A stretch of DNA of 64,000 bases from Thermoplasmata archaeon (GCA_023261755.1 JAGDXS010000026.1:22015-86014); one strand, 5' to 3'; numbered from the stretch's first letter, positions 49,805-62,396 are shown. Notes: generated by a model from the letters alone, not told the origin. Program-made: numbers and translations.

Positions 49805-50057
49805 AAATTTTTTATTTAATTTATACTTTGATTTCTTTTTTTATAAAAAATAATTTAAAATTTAAAAATAGATCTTAATTTAATTCATTTTAGAGTGCCA
49901 CTATATATTACTAAAATCCATGCTTTCTTGAATTTGGTTGTTCATTTTAAATTTCTATGATTCAAAAGCATTCTGGACATAAGTTACTAAATTTAAAAAA
50001 ATTAATTTTTATCTAATTAGATAATGCTAATCAAAAACTGAAAGCACATATAATTAG

Positions 50058-50132
50058 TGGGGCCGATCGGATTTGAACCGACGACCTTCCGGTTATCAGC
50101 CGGATGCTCCAACCATGCTAAGCTACGGCCCC
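50058..50132 (-). tRNA. tRNA-Ile (anticodon GAT), no encoded CCA, no intron
   Basis: GGGGCCG/CGGCCCC acceptor stem, CCGG-CTGATAA-CCGG anticodon arm, GGTTCAAATCC T-loop. Confidence 0.96.
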
Positions 50133-56207: not shown

Positions 56208-57062
56208 TCAAGCAATACCCATAGCTCTCAAAAATATATATCCAGCCAAGAGTAAAACAAAAGCTAAGAAGAACCCTGCTTCATACTTTCCCTGGGATAA
56301 AACTCCAGCTAAAATACCGTCACCTACACCATTTATAAGGGTAGCTACCATGAAAAGAAACTCTACTTGAGGTATCAATTGGTATTGAACATTTACAGGG
56401 CCACCTAGCGAAGAAACACCTGAAAGAGCTCTTCCAGCTTTATACATTTCAGGGAAGAAGGATGCTGCCAGTATAAGAATTGTAGCGAGGAAAACGCCAT
56501 AAGCAATAAACATAACGAAAACATAAGTTTGCATTTCTATTGCTCTTTCCTTTTCAACCATTTGAGATTCTAATGCAGCATGTGATACCATATTAAGTAC
56601 ATCCGCAACATTACCTCCAGATTCATTAGCCTTAATGATTATAGTGATCATCCTTTCCACTAGAGGTGTTTTAATTCTTTCCTTAAATGATTCCAAAGCC
56701 TCATTTACTGGAACTCCCCATTCTATTTGGGCAGCCATTTTCTTAATTTCCTTTGTAAGTGGGCCATATCTACCGCTTGAAGCTACTATAATGCTTTCAG
56801 AAAGGGTCATACCAAATCTTCCGGCCTCTGCAACATCTCTTAAAAAATCCGGAAGCCTAGCTTCTATGCTTTTAATTCTCTTAGTTTTTAAATTATAATA
56901 AATCCCATATGGTCCAAAATACAAAGAAATACCAACGACAATCAAATCCATAGGTTGAAAAATGAATAAATTTGTTTTATTCAAATAATTGATAGCTCCA
57001 ATTATCACTATTATAGTACCTATGGCTATAGATCCATACAACACAAGCTTATCCTTATTCAT
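56208..57062 (-). CDS. Type II secretion F / TadC-like pilus platform protein
   Basis: LPDFLRDVAE..RFGMTL.ES, YGPLT.EI, ESGGNVADVL, TM helices. Confidence 0.88.
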   Translation of the reverse strand: MNKDKLVLYGSIAIGTIIVIIGAINYLNKTNLFIFQPMDLIVVGISLYFGPYGIYYNLKTKRIKSIEARLPDFLRDVAEAGRFGMTLSESIIVASSGRYGPLTKEIKKMAAQIEWGVPVNEALESFKERIKTPLVERMITIIIKANESGGNVADVLNMVSHAALESQMVEKERAIEMQTYVFVMFIAYGVFLATILILAASFFPEMYKAGRALSGVSSLGGPVNVQYQLIPQVEFLFMVATLINGVGDGILAGVLSQGKYEAGFFLAFVLLLAGYIFLRAMGIA

Positions 57063-58033
57063 GAAACCACCTCACTTGTAGATTTTATTATCCAGGCAAA
57101 AAGAATAATTAGTACTGGAAGCATTATGAAAACAACAAAGTAAAGAAGTATTAATGAGACACCTGGTGTAGGGGATATTAAAGCCATTATTGCTACTATG
57201 ATAATTAAGAACAATGGAAATGCCACACCTACAGTAACAAAACTTTCTGCGAATAATGAAATAGTTTCATTTGTTCTCTTCATTTGTAGTTTCAATTCAT
57301 TTTCATATTCTTCTCCTTTAGCTATGAAATATGGTTTTAATCTCCCTCCAGAAGTTGATGTTGTTACAACACCTTGTAAAAATTCTGACCATTTTTGGCT
57401 TGGTGATCTCTTAGCGCCATCCCTTAAGGCAGTTAGAATATCTTTTCCCAATAGTTCCGTATCCCTTGTAATCCATTCAGCCTCCTTAGCTACTTCCCCA
57501 TATTCTGGTCTTTTAGCCAATTCTTTAAAAATCATATCCACGTTTACATCTGCTGAGGCCAGTGCAGAAATAAAATTCATTGTTGCTGGAAGCTTACCAT
57601 CAATCTTTTTTCCTCTTGTTTTTGCAACAGATGCAGGATTACCTATCATAAGAATGTAGGTTATTACTGGTGCAATGACAAGTGCAATTACCATAATTAA
57701 AGTAATAAATATATTTCCAAGGAATAAAGTAGCTATTAATATTGCAAACAATGGAATTGCAACAATCAATGAAAGGAAATAAACGTATGCAATATATTCC
57801 TGCGGTCTAATTAGCATATGTGCTTTTAATAAATCCTCACCCAATTTTACTAAATTTTTATTTTTTTCTGCATATTTACCAAATAATTTAAATGCAGTTT
57901 TCTGAATAGAATTTAATTCATAAAAGGTAGGCCCTGAACCTTTAGGCAATAAGATTTTATATGTTTTATTAGGTTCTGCAGTAATATTTTTTTTTCTAAA
58001 GTTAAATAAACCATTTAAAAATGTTGCGCACAA
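57059..58033 (-). CDS. Type II secretion F / TadB-like pilus platform protein
   Basis: ID.KLP..MNFI.ALA, YGEVAKE, G.DILTAL...A..SPS.KW.EFL.G; TTG start after GAGGTGA. Confidence 0.88.
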   Translation of the reverse strand: MCATFLNGLFNFRKKNITAEPNKTYKILLPKGSGPTFYELNSIQKTAFKLFGKYAEKNKNLVKLGEDLLKAHMLIRPQEYIAYVYFLSLIVAIPLFAILIATLFLGNIFITLIMVIALVIAPVITYILMIGNPASVAKTRGKKIDGKLPATMNFISALASADVNVDMIFKELAKRPEYGEVAKEAEWITRDTELLGKDILTALRDGAKRSPSQKWSEFLQGVVTTSTSGGRLKPYFIAKGEEYENELKLQMKRTNETISLFAESFVTVGVAFPLFLIIIVAIMALISPTPGVSLILLYFVVFIMLPVLIILFAWIIKSTSEVVS

Positions 58034-58067
58034 GTTTAATTCACCTCTTTAATTATCATCTTATCAC

Positions 58068-58910
58068 CTAATATGATGAAAATTGTACATTCATATATGC
58101 TATTTCAACATTCACTTCATACACGGGACCAAAGCTTAGAAAATTACCTTTTATTATTGGAGGACTAAAACCGAATAACTCAGATTGATTATAATACCAT
58201 CCCACGAGTGAATTAGCAAATGAATAACTATTGTTCACTGAAATATTTGCATACATTTTGTTGATTGCTGTGTATGTTATTTTCTGGATACCTAGGAGAG
58301 AAATTTGAAGATTCAATGTATCTGTTCCTGAATAAGAATTTGAAGGGCCTAGAACATTATATATTATGAAATTTAAAACATATCCTTTAGAAGAATTTTT
58401 AATTGAAAATCCTGGACCTACATATACTGTTGAACTATTTTCATTAACATTTTCTCTTATAACAGCACCATTTGCGAATATGATCTTTTCCTCAGGATAA
58501 TAGCTGTTATATATTGTCGTCGAAAAAAATCCAGAAGAATTTTGGTAATAATTCTTACCGTTATTGGATATATTAAGAGAAAATATAGGATTTGGAGATG
58601 GACTTATTTGTAACATGGAAGGTGTGGAAGGTGCAAAAATTGGAATTCCATTAGCCCCCATTGTTACAGGAACAGAAAAAGAATAATTCTCCTCCCCTGT
58701 TGCAACAAGCAGGTCTGTAAATGTTTTAATTTGTGAAAAATCTGAAAGTACCTCTATATCATGCTGTGCCTCGTTTGTTTTCATATAAACAGGTACGTAC
58801 TGTGTCATAAATGCAGAGAGTATAGTAACAGCGAGCAGAAGAGCAAAAAGCGTTCCTATGACAGATGCTACACCCTTTTCTTTATTTTCTTTACCCATAC
58901 CATTATTCAA
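58068..58910 (-). CDS. Large type IV pilin-like protein with a class III signal peptide
   Basis: KEKG|VASVIGTLFALLLAVTILSAF: charged leader, G at -1, hydrophobic helix. Confidence 0.8.
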   Translation of the reverse strand: MNNGMGKENKEKGVASVIGTLFALLLAVTILSAFMTQYVPVYMKTNEAQHDIEVLSDFSQIKTFTDLLVATGEENYSFSVPVTMGANGIPIFAPSTPSMLQISPSPNPIFSLNISNNGKNYYQNSSGFFSTTIYNSYYPEEKIIFANGAVIRENVNENSSTVYVGPGFSIKNSSKGYVLNFIIYNVLGPSNSYSGTDTLNLQISLLGIQKITYTAINKMYANISVNNSYSFANSLVGWYYNQSELFGFSPPIIKGNFLSFGPVYEVNVEIAYMNVQFSSY

Positions 58911-58984: not shown

Positions 58985-59605
58985 ATGAAAATAGGGCCTT
59001 CTATAGTTTCAGCTGATCTAACCTGTTTAATAAATGTTGTGAAAATTCTTGAAAATAATGGAATAGATTTCTATCATGTTGATGTAATGGACGGTAATTT
59101 TGTACCAAATATCACCGTAGGTCCAGATTTTGTTAAGACTCTTAGAAAAATTACTGAAAAACCAATTGAGGCACATTTAATGATATCAAGGCCAGATCTT
59201 TATGTTGAAAGATTTATTGATTCTGGTGCAGATATGATAACAGTGCATATTGAAAATGAATACTACAATGAAGCATTGAATAAGATGTCAAAAGTCAGAA
59301 AAGGAATTGCAATAAATCCAGAAACTGCAATAGAAAAGATAATACCTATTCTTGATAAAATAGATTTTGTCTTGGTAATGACCGTACACCCTGGATTTTC
59401 TGGTCAGAAATTCATTGAAAGTGTTGTCCCAAAAATGAAAAAATTAAAGGAAATTCAGAAAAATTATAATTTTGAAATATCAGTAGACGGAGGAATAAAT
59501 AAACATACTATTATAAAAGTAAAAGACTATGTAGATATGGTATGTGCAGCTTCAGGTATTTTTTCAGGTGATATTACAGAAAATATTAAAGCCTTAAGAA
59601 TTTAA
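58985..59605 (+). CDS. rpe: Ribulose-phosphate 3-epimerase
   Basis: HVDVMDGNFVPNIT.G, EAHLM, MTVHPGFSGQKF, VDGGIN. Confidence 0.95.
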   Translation: MKIGPSIVSADLTCLINVVKILENNGIDFYHVDVMDGNFVPNITVGPDFVKTLRKITEKPIEAHLMISRPDLYVERFIDSGADMITVHIENEYYNEALNKMSKVRKGIAINPETAIEKIIPILDKIDFVLVMTVHPGFSGQKFIESVVPKMKKLKEIQKNYNFEISVDGGINKHTIIKVKDYVDMVCAASGIFSGDITENIKALRI

Positions 59606-62382
59606 TCCCAGGATATGGGTGAATTGCATTTTGGACAAAATGGTTGAGCAGAATCTATTTCTGTCTCACACATTGGGCAATAATATTTTCTGTCTGTTTT
59701 AATTATTTTGTAAGATGAAACATTTTTTAAATACTCTTTTACTATATTTAATTTAGAAATTGGAATACCAGATTTTTCACTAATTGTTTTCAGATCTCCA
59801 GATTTTATTTCCATCAAGGTAAAATAGCCTGCATTGAAGAGTTTTTCAGCATCATCCTCATTGAGAGAAGGTAATTTTGAAAGTGCTTTAATTTTATATT
59901 TTTTATACATTGGGGATATTCCTATGTCAATGTTTCCTTCAAGAATTTCTTCAAAACTTAAAACAAGCATTTCATTTATTTTATCTGTAAAATTTATTAC
60001 TACAATTTTCAATTCCTTCATTAAATTCTCTTGATAAGGTTTTAAAATTGTTTTTAATATCTGTGAATCTGACATTGATATTCTTATATAATCATCATAA
60101 TCTACTTTTAATTTATTTTTCATGAACGAAATTCTTCTCTTTAATTTTTTTATTATATGAAGATTTTCAACATTTTCATTCGAATTAAAATCAATGTAAG
60201 CCCTTATGTTTGTTTTTTGTACAGCTTCAAAATTTTCTGGTAATTTTAATATGAAATCAACCATGTTTGATGTTATCGTTATTAACTGACCTTCAATTCC
60301 TACATTGTATCCATTTTTCTCTATTTCATCCTTTAATTTCTTTGGATCTATTTTTTGCAGAATCAATTCTATTGTATTAGCCAATGGCTTGTATATATCT
60401 CCAAGCTTATCCCTTTTAAGAACTACTTTATATTCCAAACCTTTCCATGCTTCAGTTATTTCTATATTTGTTGTGTTGAAAAATTCTTTTAATTCCTTTT
60501 TAATATTTACCAATACTGGAATAAACCTCATTTCTGTTTCAAATATTATTTTATTTATTGGTTTACTTAATTCAATATCTTTCTTCCTTTTCAAATTAGT
60601 AATATCTCTTTTTATTTCAAAAATGTCGTTAAAAATTTTTTCAAGAATTTCATTTATCATGAATTTTCCCTTTTCTATCTTGTTTATTTCATATGTAGTT
60701 TTATTTATAAATTCTAAAATTGTATAGGGAAAAAATGGGTATGAAATTGAGATTAATTCATTAATCAAATCAGAATTAATCTGTTCACCTCTTATAAGTT
60801 TCATATATTTTTTTGATAATGTCTCTATATAACCATAATAGTCACATAAAATATTATACAAATCAGGTTTTTCTATCTTTTCCATTAAGTTCTTTTTATA
60901 TTTTTCTGTTATTGAAAGAGCATATTGATCTATCATTGTTTCCTTCTGGTTTGTATTATGAATTAATGAATAATTGAGAATATTTTTTAGATGATTTTTT
61001 ATTTTAGAAATTTTTAACAAATCATTATTATTCAAAGTCCCATTCTTTTTTAATATGTATGCTAACCTTAAAACTTCTGGATCATAATCTTTTAATTCTT
61101 TCAATTCAGTATACCTTATGAATACATCTGTGATATAATTTGATTTTAAAGCGGAAAAAAAGAAAAACAGTGGAAATCTTTTCTTCAAATTTTTATGATT
61201 AATAAAAACCTTGTTCTTAATAGACTGCGTCATTGCGAAAACTCCAGCCGGAAGCAAATCTGGATCATAGGTATAATTGTTTTTCATTGTTCCCCCACAT
61301 GAACATGGTTTTTCCATGGAACCGTATTCAATTTTTCCGCACTTATCACATTCAAGTATAGGTATTTTTGGAAAATTTTTAAAATCCTTTGATATTAAAA
61401 TTTCCTTTACTTTTAATGATTTTTCAAATTTTTCAGGATGAAATTTTATTATTGAAGAATCCAGTTTTAAATAAATTTCTTTTGTTCTTTTTCTTCTTGC
61501 CTTCTTTCCACAGTATTTACAAAATGGAATTTCTTTTTGAACATTTTCGTGGTCTATTATTTCAAATTGTAACCTTTTAGCATTTTCACCTAAAATTTTT
61601 TCATCATTGCTGTTAACCTCACCTGAGAGTAATCTTGTATTTTGATTTTCTTTTATAATTGGTGAAAAATCTTTAAATTGATCTAGTATATCATTACCTG
61701 TCATATCAATTATTTTTGTGGGAAAGATTAATTGCTTTTCAGTTAATTTTTTAAAGGTATCAGAATGTATAATCCATTTTTCATTACCTTGATCTTGAAT
61801 TATAAATTTATCATATTTATTTATTATTAAACCTTCCACATTGAGTACTGTTTCTTCATCACCAAAATGAACAAAGTAGGTATTTTCATTAATTTTAATT
61901 TTGCAGTACAATATTCTGCCTTCACCAATTTCAAATTTGACGTCTCTAGTTGTAAGTGCCGTTTTACAATAATCGCAATAATAGGTTGATTTCTTTTTTA
62001 TGTAAATTTTTTGCATTTCATATAATTTCTGAATAAGAACATCCAATGCCCATATTGAATTAGGATCAACAGAAGATATTGTAATTCCATTCGTAAAAGA
62101 TTTTAATTTTTCCTGTAGTTCAGAGTAATTTATTGGTGTTTTCCTTATTACAACGGGAAGTATTGGGTCAAGGGGTATTATTAGTGATCCAGGAATAATA
62201 CTAGTGCCATAAGATAAAATACTTTTTTTCGATGGTTTGCCATAAATAATTTCCTTCAATCTATGATAAAAATCAGAATGAGAAATTGAACATAAATCAT
62301 CAGTAGAAACAGGAATTTTTGAAGGAAGCGATGAATCAATTGACAATCTTTCACCTATCATATTCATATAAAGAATTAGCAA
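59602..62382 (-). CDS. Catalytically degenerate isoleucyl-tRNA synthetase paralog fused to a HhH domain and a zinc ribbon
   Basis: Collinear IleRS landmarks (YCDYCKTAL, PFCKYC, IPILECDKCG..CSCGG.M, YDPEVLRL, DQYALS, LSKKY.KLIR, YPFFP, RRISFMK). HIGH, KMSKS, SRQR and WTTTPW are absent. Likely start is TTG 62346 after GGTGA. Confidence 0.8.
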   Translation of the reverse strand: MLILYMNMIGERLSIDSSLPSKIPVSTDDLCSISHSDFYHRLKEIIYGKPSKKSILSYGTSIIPGSLIIPLDPILPVVIRKTPINYSELQEKLKSFTNGITISSVDPNSIWALDVLIQKLYEMQKIYIKKKSTYYCDYCKTALTTRDVKFEIGEGRILYCKIKINENTYFVHFGDEETVLNVEGLIINKYDKFIIQDQGNEKWIIHSDTFKKLTEKQLIFPTKIIDMTGNDILDQFKDFSPIIKENQNTRLLSGEVNSNDEKILGENAKRLQFEIIDHENVQKEIPFCKYCGKKARRKRTKEIYLKLDSSIIKFHPEKFEKSLKVKEILISKDFKNFPKIPILECDKCGKIEYGSMEKPCSCGGTMKNNYTYDPDLLPAGVFAMTQSIKNKVFINHKNLKKRFPLFFFFSALKSNYITDVFIRYTELKELKDYDPEVLRLAYILKKNGTLNNNDLLKISKIKNHLKNILNYSLIHNTNQKETMIDQYALSITEKYKKNLMEKIEKPDLYNILCDYYGYIETLSKKYMKLIRGEQINSDLINELISISYPFFPYTILEFINKTTYEINKIEKGKFMINEILEKIFNDIFEIKRDITNLKRKKDIELSKPINKIIFETEMRFIPVLVNIKKELKEFFNTTNIEITEAWKGLEYKVVLKRDKLGDIYKPLANTIELILQKIDPKKLKDEIEKNGYNVGIEGQLITITSNMVDFILKLPENFEAVQKTNIRAYIDFNSNENVENLHIIKKLKRRISFMKNKLKVDYDDYIRISMSDSQILKTILKPYQENLMKELKIVVINFTDKINEMLVLSFEEILEGNIDIGISPMYKKYKIKALSKLPSLNEDDAEKLFNAGYFTLMEIKSGDLKTISEKSGIPISKLNIVKEYLKNVSSYKIIKTDRKYYCPMCETEIDSAQPFCPKCNSPISWD

Positions 62383-62396
62383 TATATATAATAAAT

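Follow-up and report, generated by a model that had tools for sequence, protein, structure and literature searches.

A full-length isoleucyl-tRNA synthetase paralog without catalytic motifs, a candidate tRNA-binding pseudo-enzyme of Thermoplasmata

Is a gene that follows an isoleucyl-tRNA synthetase (IleRS) along its whole length, and in which the signatures of catalysis can no longer be read, still a synthetase, a relic of one, or a protein put to another use? The question is raised by a locus in the DNA of a Thermoplasmata archaeon (GCA_023261755.1 JAGDXS010000026.1:22015-86014; the whole stretch of 64,000 nt is referred to here as the window). A preliminary description of the window had taken the gene for a dead IleRS paralog with a frame intact for >900 codons and all zinc-cysteine pairs kept. 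The paralog lies in a frame on the minus strand (59602..62382) that is open over 926 codons from a TTG at 62382, the codon from which its residues are numbered throughout. The ATG at 62367 is the likely start because the orthologs of the paralog start at MxMIGE, and the gene is accordingly given as follows:

59602..62367, minus strand: coding sequence of the dead IleRS paralog, 921 codons (ATG at 62367, stop at 59602-59604)

Descent from isoleucyl-tRNA synthetase and domain layout

The paralog is a full-length protein derived from isoleucyl-tRNA synthetase. An hhalign comparison of 12 family members with 10 true IleRS gave a probability of 100 and an E-value of 3e-100 over 973 collinear columns, which begin near residue 100 and extend to the C-terminus. 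The alignment of residues 1-100 is weak (E 5e-4), yet collinear with the HIGH region of IleRS. When a profile of 8 family members was searched against the PDB, it matched IleRS2 of Priestia megaterium (8c8u, E 7.6e-23, residues 471-797) and, more weakly but in collinear position, matched it again at the first CxxC knuckle. It should be mentioned that IleRS surfaced with the profile; a single-sequence PDB search with the paralog matched the helix-hairpin-helix (HhH) tail alone. BLASTP against the IleRS resident in the same genome returned weak local matches only, and a second, word-indexed homolog search with the alignment brought in almost no new members.

The AlphaFold2 model of the paralog has a mean predicted local distance difference test score (pLDDT) of 69 and is confident at residues 130-300 and 430-926. 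Its best Foldseek match is IleRS 8c8v (E 6e-31), followed by yeast IleRS 8wnd (E 3e-25), and the segment 130-300 aligns with the isolated IleRS editing domain (1wny/1wk8) with a template modelling score of 0.45. Every landmark string quoted in the preliminary description is found in the translation, and its claim of collinearity with archaeal/eukaryote-type IleRS and its expectation of a class Ia aminoacyl-tRNA synthetase (aaRS) fold agree with these alignments and matches, the two Rossmann halves being modelled at low confidence. The domains of the paralog are laid out below, from the N-terminus to the C-terminus:

61993..62367, minus strand: degenerate first Rossmann half, residues 6-130, with PVSTDD at the position of HIGH; placed by alignment, AlphaFold2 confidence low
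61483..61992, minus strand: CP1 (editing-domain-like) fold, residues 131-300, flanked by the CxxC knuckles C136/C139 and C288/C291; pLDDT 73-88
61093..61482, minus strand: remnant of the second Rossmann half with zinc site 2 (C345/C348, C360/C362), residues 301-430; placed by alignment, AlphaFold2 confidence low
60583..61092, minus strand: helical anticodon-binding domain (Anticodon_1 type), residues 431-600; profile match to IleRS2 8c8u, PF08264 found in orthologs
59905..60582, minus strand: C-terminal tRNA-binding domains of type-2 IleRS (DUF5915), residues 601-826; PF19302 at E 2e-4, under the curated cut-off
59713..59904, minus strand: helix-hairpin-helix of the RadA N-terminal / NusA C-terminal type, residues 827-890; HHH_5, pLDDT 84-90
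59605..59712, minus strand: C-terminal CxxC...CxxC zinc ribbon, residues 891-926; Zn_ribbon_3 at E 1.7e-6, over the cut-off

The IleRS-type order of domains, both zinc sites and the anticodon-binding and C-terminal domains are thus all present. Type-2 IleRS (P. megaterium 8C8U/8C8V and yeast 8WND), which provide the best sequence-profile and fold matches, run in the same order: Rossmann half, CxxC, CP1, CxxC, Rossmann half with zinc site 2, anticodon-binding domain and DUF5915. The paralog differs from them in lacking HIGH, KMSKS, the editing motifs and any match to PF00133, in having a Rossmann fold shorter by ~135 residues, in the added tail of HhH and zinc ribbon, and in coexisting with a real IleRS. 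The four cysteine pairs of the two IleRS zinc sites (C136/C139, C288/C291, C345/C348 and C360/C362) are invariant in 12/12 family members, as are the zinc-ribbon cysteines C902/C905/C916/C919, so that both the long frame and the cysteine pairs of the preliminary description stand. Pfam searches of the paralog alone yield a sub-threshold DUF5915 (651-801), HHH_5 (832-874) and the C-terminal zinc ribbon, and nothing else. Profile matches of the HhH include NusA (2.3e-5), RadA (4.9e-4) and Hel308-type domains.

What is lost and what is kept

Motif losses were tabulated in 12 members of the family, and each of the 12 shows them. No H-x-G-H/T (HIGH) motif is found in any of the 12, while the rows of active IleRS read HxGH or HxGT. 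Between 'FIRYTELKEL' and 'DYDPEVLRL', both the hhalign and the MAFFT alignments show a deletion of the KMSKS loop. In the paralog, FGDEE stands at the position of the editing motif WTTTPW, NTRLLSG at that of GTGxVH, and SKDFKNF at that of SRQRYWG. With the landmark cysteines as reference points, the first Rossmann half is ~60 and the second ~75 residues shorter than its counterpart in the resident IleRS, ~135 in total. The paralog gives no match to PF00133 (tRNA-synt_1), and a genome-wide search with this model returns five other genes. The losses of HIGH, KMSKS, WTTTPW, GTG and SRQRxWG listed in the preliminary description are all seen again; its pairing of PGWDxHG with PGSLIIP falls in the weak N-terminal alignment and is insecure. 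As judged from these sequences, the paralog cannot aminoacylate or edit by the known mechanism, and no aminoacylation is predicted because the catalytic motifs are lost. It should not be filed as a functional IleRS, since it fails the defining tests of one.

The losses are not spread evenly. From the alignment we selected the columns with at least 85% conservation among 33 active IleRS and scored the paralog family for the same residue, with the following retention:

Rossmann and CP1 parts: 15-22% of conserved IleRS residues kept
Anticodon-binding domain: 61% kept
C-terminal domains: 53% kept

The D..W..S and S..Y..R motifs of the anticodon-binding domain are among the residues that the paralog family retains. 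This pattern of residue retention is the main, and indirect, argument that the property preserved in the paralog would be tRNA recognition and not catalysis.

The same data bear on whether the protein may still be an enzyme, by a non-canonical aminoacylation or by trans-editing (deacylation) through CP1. CP1 is modelled with good confidence in a fold similar to the IleRS editing domain, and the zinc sites that hinge it are kept. However, HIGH and KMSKS are missing from 12/12 members, other residues stand in place of the Thr-rich peptide and of the editing-site GTG-His, the core and CP1 are the parts with the low retention given above, and a complete IleRS with an intact editing site is found in every genome. 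We consider a remaining enzymatic activity very improbable.

Maintenance beside an intact IleRS and origin in a tailed lineage

The genome (1.22 Mb in 38 contigs, 93% complete) encodes a separate IleRS of 1041 aa on another contig (G000:C11:26566-29688), with HFGH, WTTTPW and KMSKS intact, as the preliminary description had surmised. A motif-intact IleRS is likewise present in all 40 relatives searched, that is, in 41/41 genomes of the order. The resident IleRS scores 914 bits against P. megaterium IleRS2 (8c8v), 794 against Thermus IleRS and 648 against P0011, a tailed archaeal IleRS of the kind described below, which suggests an origin of the resident gene by old gene exchange or displacement. 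Charging in this order is the work of this resident, IleRS2-like enzyme.

Intact orthologs of the paralog were found in 24/41 genomes of the order, in four families. The counts by family, which refer to strong full-length matches, are:

f1 (the paralog's own family): 15/16 genomes
f4: 1/1 genomes
f5: 7/7 genomes
f6: 1/1 genomes
f2: 0/1 genomes
f3: 0/8 genomes
f7: 0/7 genomes

The one f1 genome without a match is the closest relative (G002), a metagenome-assembled genome that is without nnr too; as the whole locus is missing, it is uninformative as a true absence. An ortholog that appears split (G004/L022) was considered as a frameshift and rejected, the interruption being a run of 65 N.

Nonsynonymous divergence (dN) of the paralog is 1-1.9x that of ileS for the same genome pairs. 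Among pairs with finite synonymous divergence (dS), the dN/dS ratio (omega) is 0.08-0.30 for the paralog, 0.05-0.15 for ileS and 0.04-0.31 for the neighbouring genes nnr and rpe; dS is saturated (>1.5 or undefined) in nearly all pairs, so that omega is rough and the weight lies on dN compared with that of ileS, nnr and rpe. With rising distance, the amino acid identities of the paralog and of ileS are 68 vs 79%, 46 vs 67%, 28 vs 59% and 24 vs 57%. Across 23-69% identity, 47 columns are invariant in the paralog family. The region is A+T-rich (24.6% G+C), and given the composition of the strand a frame this long would be free of stops by chance with a probability of ~1e-41. A decaying pseudogene, or relic without function, would fit with the faster evolution relative to the resident ileS. 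It would have to account for a frame that is open in 24 genomes of four families against that chance, for an omega well below 1 and for the 47 invariant columns, with the sole 'split' copy being an assembly gap; the probability that we give to this explanation is negligible. The comparisons of coding sequences show that the paralog is kept by purifying selection beside a separate intact IleRS, and the earlier argument for selection over decay is upheld, omega being in the range of the neighbouring housekeeping genes. By motif loss and by purifying selection beside the active enzyme, the paralog is, on sequence grounds, a pseudo-aaRS.

The paralog might have been expected to be a duplicate of the resident ileS. 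This was rejected; it belongs to a separate lineage of tailed IleRS that is widespread in Thermoplasmatota. A hidden Markov model (HMM) search of 1.8 billion representative proteins recovered the orthologs first and then IleRS-like proteins of 1150-1800 aa (E 1e-81 to 1e-41), with ordinary short IleRS at 1e-34 or weaker. The long proteins carry a tail of HhH, often a zinc ribbon, and a C-terminal DUF835, which is 'iKaiC', an inactive KaiC-like output domain of archaeal response regulators (PMC5847659). Their motifs form a spectrum: some are intact (HxGT, K/PMSKS, WTTTPW), some lack KMSKS only, and many have lost all motifs. In f11 and f13, two families belonging to the same class, genomes have the tailed protein as their sole IleRS, while f10 (G118) has a 1435-aa dead tailed copy alongside a short intact IleRS.

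The working tailed IleRS of Thermoplasmatota (for example P0011, P0020, P0030 and the sole IleRS of f11/f13), which are annotated 'isoleucine--tRNA ligase', have in common with the paralog the HhH, the zinc ribbon and the lineage signature YxxGIEGQxIxITxxMVxF, which the paralog carries within residues 601-826. They are its nearest relatives by HMM score, dead tailed forms being nearest on the tree. They keep HxGT, (K/P)MSKS and WTTTPW and are the sole IleRS of their genomes, whereas the paralog has lost all of these motifs and, in f1, DUF835 as well. This domain is absent from the paralog and from all f1 members; it is kept in the orthologs of f4 (P0009) and f5 (G019) and in the related P0014-P0016. 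The HhH of the paralog aligns with that of another tailed protein, P0010, via P0009. In a maximum-likelihood tree of the C-terminal half, the paralog family is monophyletic (support of 100 in the Shimodaira-Hasegawa-like approximate likelihood ratio test) and is joined to one set of dead tailed proteins (95), with the order's resident IleRS in a clade far away. The profiles, signature and tree together show an ancestry of the paralog in the Thermoplasmatota IleRS lineage with a tail of HhH, zinc ribbon and DUF835.

In the simplest reading, the ancestor would have had a tailed archaeal IleRS, and an IleRS2-like enzyme would have taken over charging. The tailed copy may then have been retained in four families for a second job and lost in others; in f1 it has additionally shed DUF835. 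A split of the DUF835 tail into a separate gene in f1 was considered and rejected, as a stand-alone DUF835 is also found where the paralog is missing (G031).

Several observations were made alongside. A stand-alone DUF835 (iKaiC) gene of ~218 aa lies at G000:C33:42120-42533, with one copy in each f1 relative checked; such a gene is also present in an f3 genome without the dead IleRS, and G019 has DUF835 matches at six loci. P0010 (1425 aa; NCBI MEM3396675.1 and others) bears the annotation 'isoleucine--tRNA ligase'; its HMGH is intact, but it has QLVTNVSPN instead of KMSKS and WTPYPW instead of WTTTPW, P0028 being similar. By these motifs P0010 may be a mis-annotated non-charging paralog. A 694-aa frame in f3 (G037:C11:29062-29565), ~4 kb from the normal IleRS of the same genome, aligns with the family profile in the section for the IleRS C-terminal domain alone (625-792, E 5e-25) and, to judge from that match, its product may be another borrower of the IleRS C-terminal domain.

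Possible roles of the paralog

With a little more confidence than doubt, we propose that the paralog binds tRNA(Ile) without catalysis, as an adaptor, sensor or sequestering factor. The ancestral tailed enzyme would have had a second task apart from its enzymatic one, and the paralog would survive for that task. Recognition of tRNA(Ile) would lie with the anticodon-binding and C-terminal domains, the zinc-stapled remnant of CP1 and core could serve as a rigid body or as a cradle for the acceptor arm, and the tail of HhH and zinc ribbon would join the bound tRNA to a partner, which may be a nucleic acid or a protein.

Several points weigh against this proposal. About half of the universally conserved residues of the anticodon-binding and C-terminal domains are kept, and several of the conserved arginines and lysines have given way to other residues, for instance at canonical R737, K862 and Q974. 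Conservation is fairly even along the chain (39-56% in f1) with its maximum (56%) in the dead core block 301-430, and because the constraint is so even the dead core would be more than a spacer. AlphaFold2 confidence is below 50 at residues 1-30, 50-128, 302-341 and 370-430, where the Rossmann-like fold is only putative. In the unrooted tree, dead forms that evolve fast may have been drawn together by long-branch attraction. The neighbourhood offers no clue to function, with nnr and rpe in f1 and an AspRS-like gene and AcnX in G019. Finally, no RNA-seq run covering the locus was found; the three sequencing runs found for it all come from one hot-spring metagenome sample and are typed as probable DNA.

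The evenness of the constraint, dead core included, can also be read in favour of a scaffold or regulatory subunit that works through protein contacts, with the working IleRS, a translation factor or a KaiC/RecA-like ATPase, and for which tRNA is not the ligand; the IleRS body would then be a structural platform and nothing more. A precedent is LeuRS-I of Sulfolobus, a non-charging aaRS copy that affects growth. The tail resembles the N-terminal HhH of RadA, a stand-alone DUF835 gene is present in this genome, and relatives of the paralog add the RecA/KaiC-like DUF835, an oligomerising fold (PMC5847659). Yet the universal IleRS residues of the anticodon-binding domain and C-terminus are kept three times better than those of the core, which is hard to explain if tRNA is irrelevant, and the stand-alone DUF835 also occurs in the family of G031, which is without the paralog. 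We regard such a scaffold as unlikely.

A further alternative is a regulator linked to DNA binding or transcription, in which the HhH and the zinc ribbon would contact DNA while the IleRS-derived body would sense a small ligand, for example isoleucine or a related metabolite. The HhH matches to NusA, RadA and Hel308-type domains, the invariant C-terminal zinc ribbon and the remodelled core block 301-430, as the most conserved part, are in line with it. Sensing of such a ligand is difficult to reconcile with the destroyed motifs of the amino-acid/ATP pocket and the truncated Rossmann halves. The same tail is found on the working IleRS of f11 and f13, so that the tail alone is no mark of a transcription factor, and no conserved neighbourhood of target genes is seen. 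This regulator appears improbable; taken jointly, the scaffold and the ligand-sensing regulator make up a distinct minority of our expectation.

Among known non-catalytic relatives of aaRS, the paralog is comparable in concept to HisZ, to LeuRS-I (the second LeuRS of Sulfolobus) and to the HisRS-like domain in GCN2. Like the paralog, these are aaRS bodies without charging that are under selection beside a working enzyme. The paralog differs in its derivation from the class Ia IleRS, in keeping the whole multi-domain chain including CP1 and the zinc sites, and in its appended module, an HhH/zinc ribbon (with an iKaiC-type domain in relatives); its role is putative. In GCN2 the HisRS-like domain binds uncharged tRNA and drives a signalling domain. 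By analogy, and not homology, the tailed IleRS lineage might couple the status of tRNA(Ile) to a signalling or assembly module, the dead copies, the paralog among them, being dedicated to the sensing of tRNA(Ile) that is uncharged or unmodified. Reading of the tRNA would fall to the IleRS body, and the HhH/zinc-ribbon tail, together with iKaiC in relatives, would pass the signal to partners. This extension we hold to be rather doubtful.

The surroundings of the gene were examined for a link to function. Upstream and in the same orientation lies nnr, encoding the bifunctional NAD(P)H-hydrate repair enzyme (YjeF_N and Carb_kinase domains), and downstream, convergent, lies the gene for ribulose-phosphate 3-epimerase (rpe). 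The nnr-paralog-rpe arrangement is kept throughout f1. In G019, of f5, the ortholog is a 1007-aa dead IleRS with DUF835, divergent from a class II AspRS/AsnRS-like gene 82 bp off, and genes for aconitase-X (AcnX) follow downstream, unlike the nnr/rpe setting in f1. The additional features are:

L081:5042-6334, minus strand, and L081:6417-9440, plus strand (G019): divergent pair of the AspRS/AsnRS-like gene and the dead IleRS ortholog
62381..62395, minus strand: TATA-like A/T box TTTATTATATATATT, directly 3' of the nnr stop and ~20 nt upstream of the ATG

The position of TTTATTATATATATT suggests a promoter of the paralog's own, with a leaderless or near-leaderless mRNA. A function deduced from gene context was rejected, nnr/rpe synteny being confined to f1 and the G019 setting being different. 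The preliminary description had pointed to the co-orientation behind nnr and to a tRNA-Ile(GAT) gene ~9.5 kb away. Both arrangements are real, the tRNA-Ile(GAU) gene lying at 50057-50132 of the window; neither carries functional weight, because the setting in G019 differs and the gene has an apparent TATA-like box of its own. As a meaningful link, the nearby tRNA-Ile gene was rejected also in view of the ordinary tRNA set of the genome, which has tRNA-Ile(GAU) and three CAU tRNAs, one of them intron-containing.

With regard to the tRNA genes, it is noted that ARAGORN reads G000:C6:11916-12022 as tRNA-Asn(ATT) without its intron mode and as the intron-containing CAU tRNA with it; this third CAU tRNA is possibly tRNA-Ile2. 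At G000:C29:344-439 the program gives a tRNA-like gene whose anticodon has four bases (AGTG), which is probably an intron artefact as well. Elsewhere in the window, at 56208-58910 on the minus strand, two T2SSF (TadC/FlaJ-like) membrane proteins lie side by side ahead of a 280-aa protein that has an N-terminal hydrophobic segment and gives no Pfam match; the group resembles a type IV pilus-like operon. Identity to the counterparts in relatives is 80-87% for the T2SSF proteins and ~56-78% for the 280-aa protein; the paralog, too, is far less conserved than the T2SSF pair.

A description of the family did not turn up in literature searches, which covered IleRS paralogs, pseudo-aaRS of Thermoplasmata, DUF835 and HhH extensions of IleRS. 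Its members bear public names such as 'hypothetical protein', 'DUF5915 domain-containing protein', 'rubrerythrin' and 'class I tRNA ligase family protein', and one tailed form without KMSKS is publicly named 'isoleucine--tRNA ligase'. Given these names, metabolic reconstructions may miscount proteins of this type.

Most non-catalytic relatives of aaRS retain a single domain or activity. In the paralog a class Ia synthetase chain of >900 residues, with CP1 and both zinc sites, has been conserved in its entirety after the loss of charging and proofreading. The same event is observed more than once within one archaeal phylum, where a series can be drawn from a tailed working enzyme through a tailed dead copy to a tail-reduced dead copy, the paralog. 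Such a series would amount to a natural experiment on the roles of synthetases besides the charging of tRNA, of relevance to the fields of aaRS and archaeal translation, and it points to an unstudied second function of the HhH-zinc ribbon-iKaiC tail.

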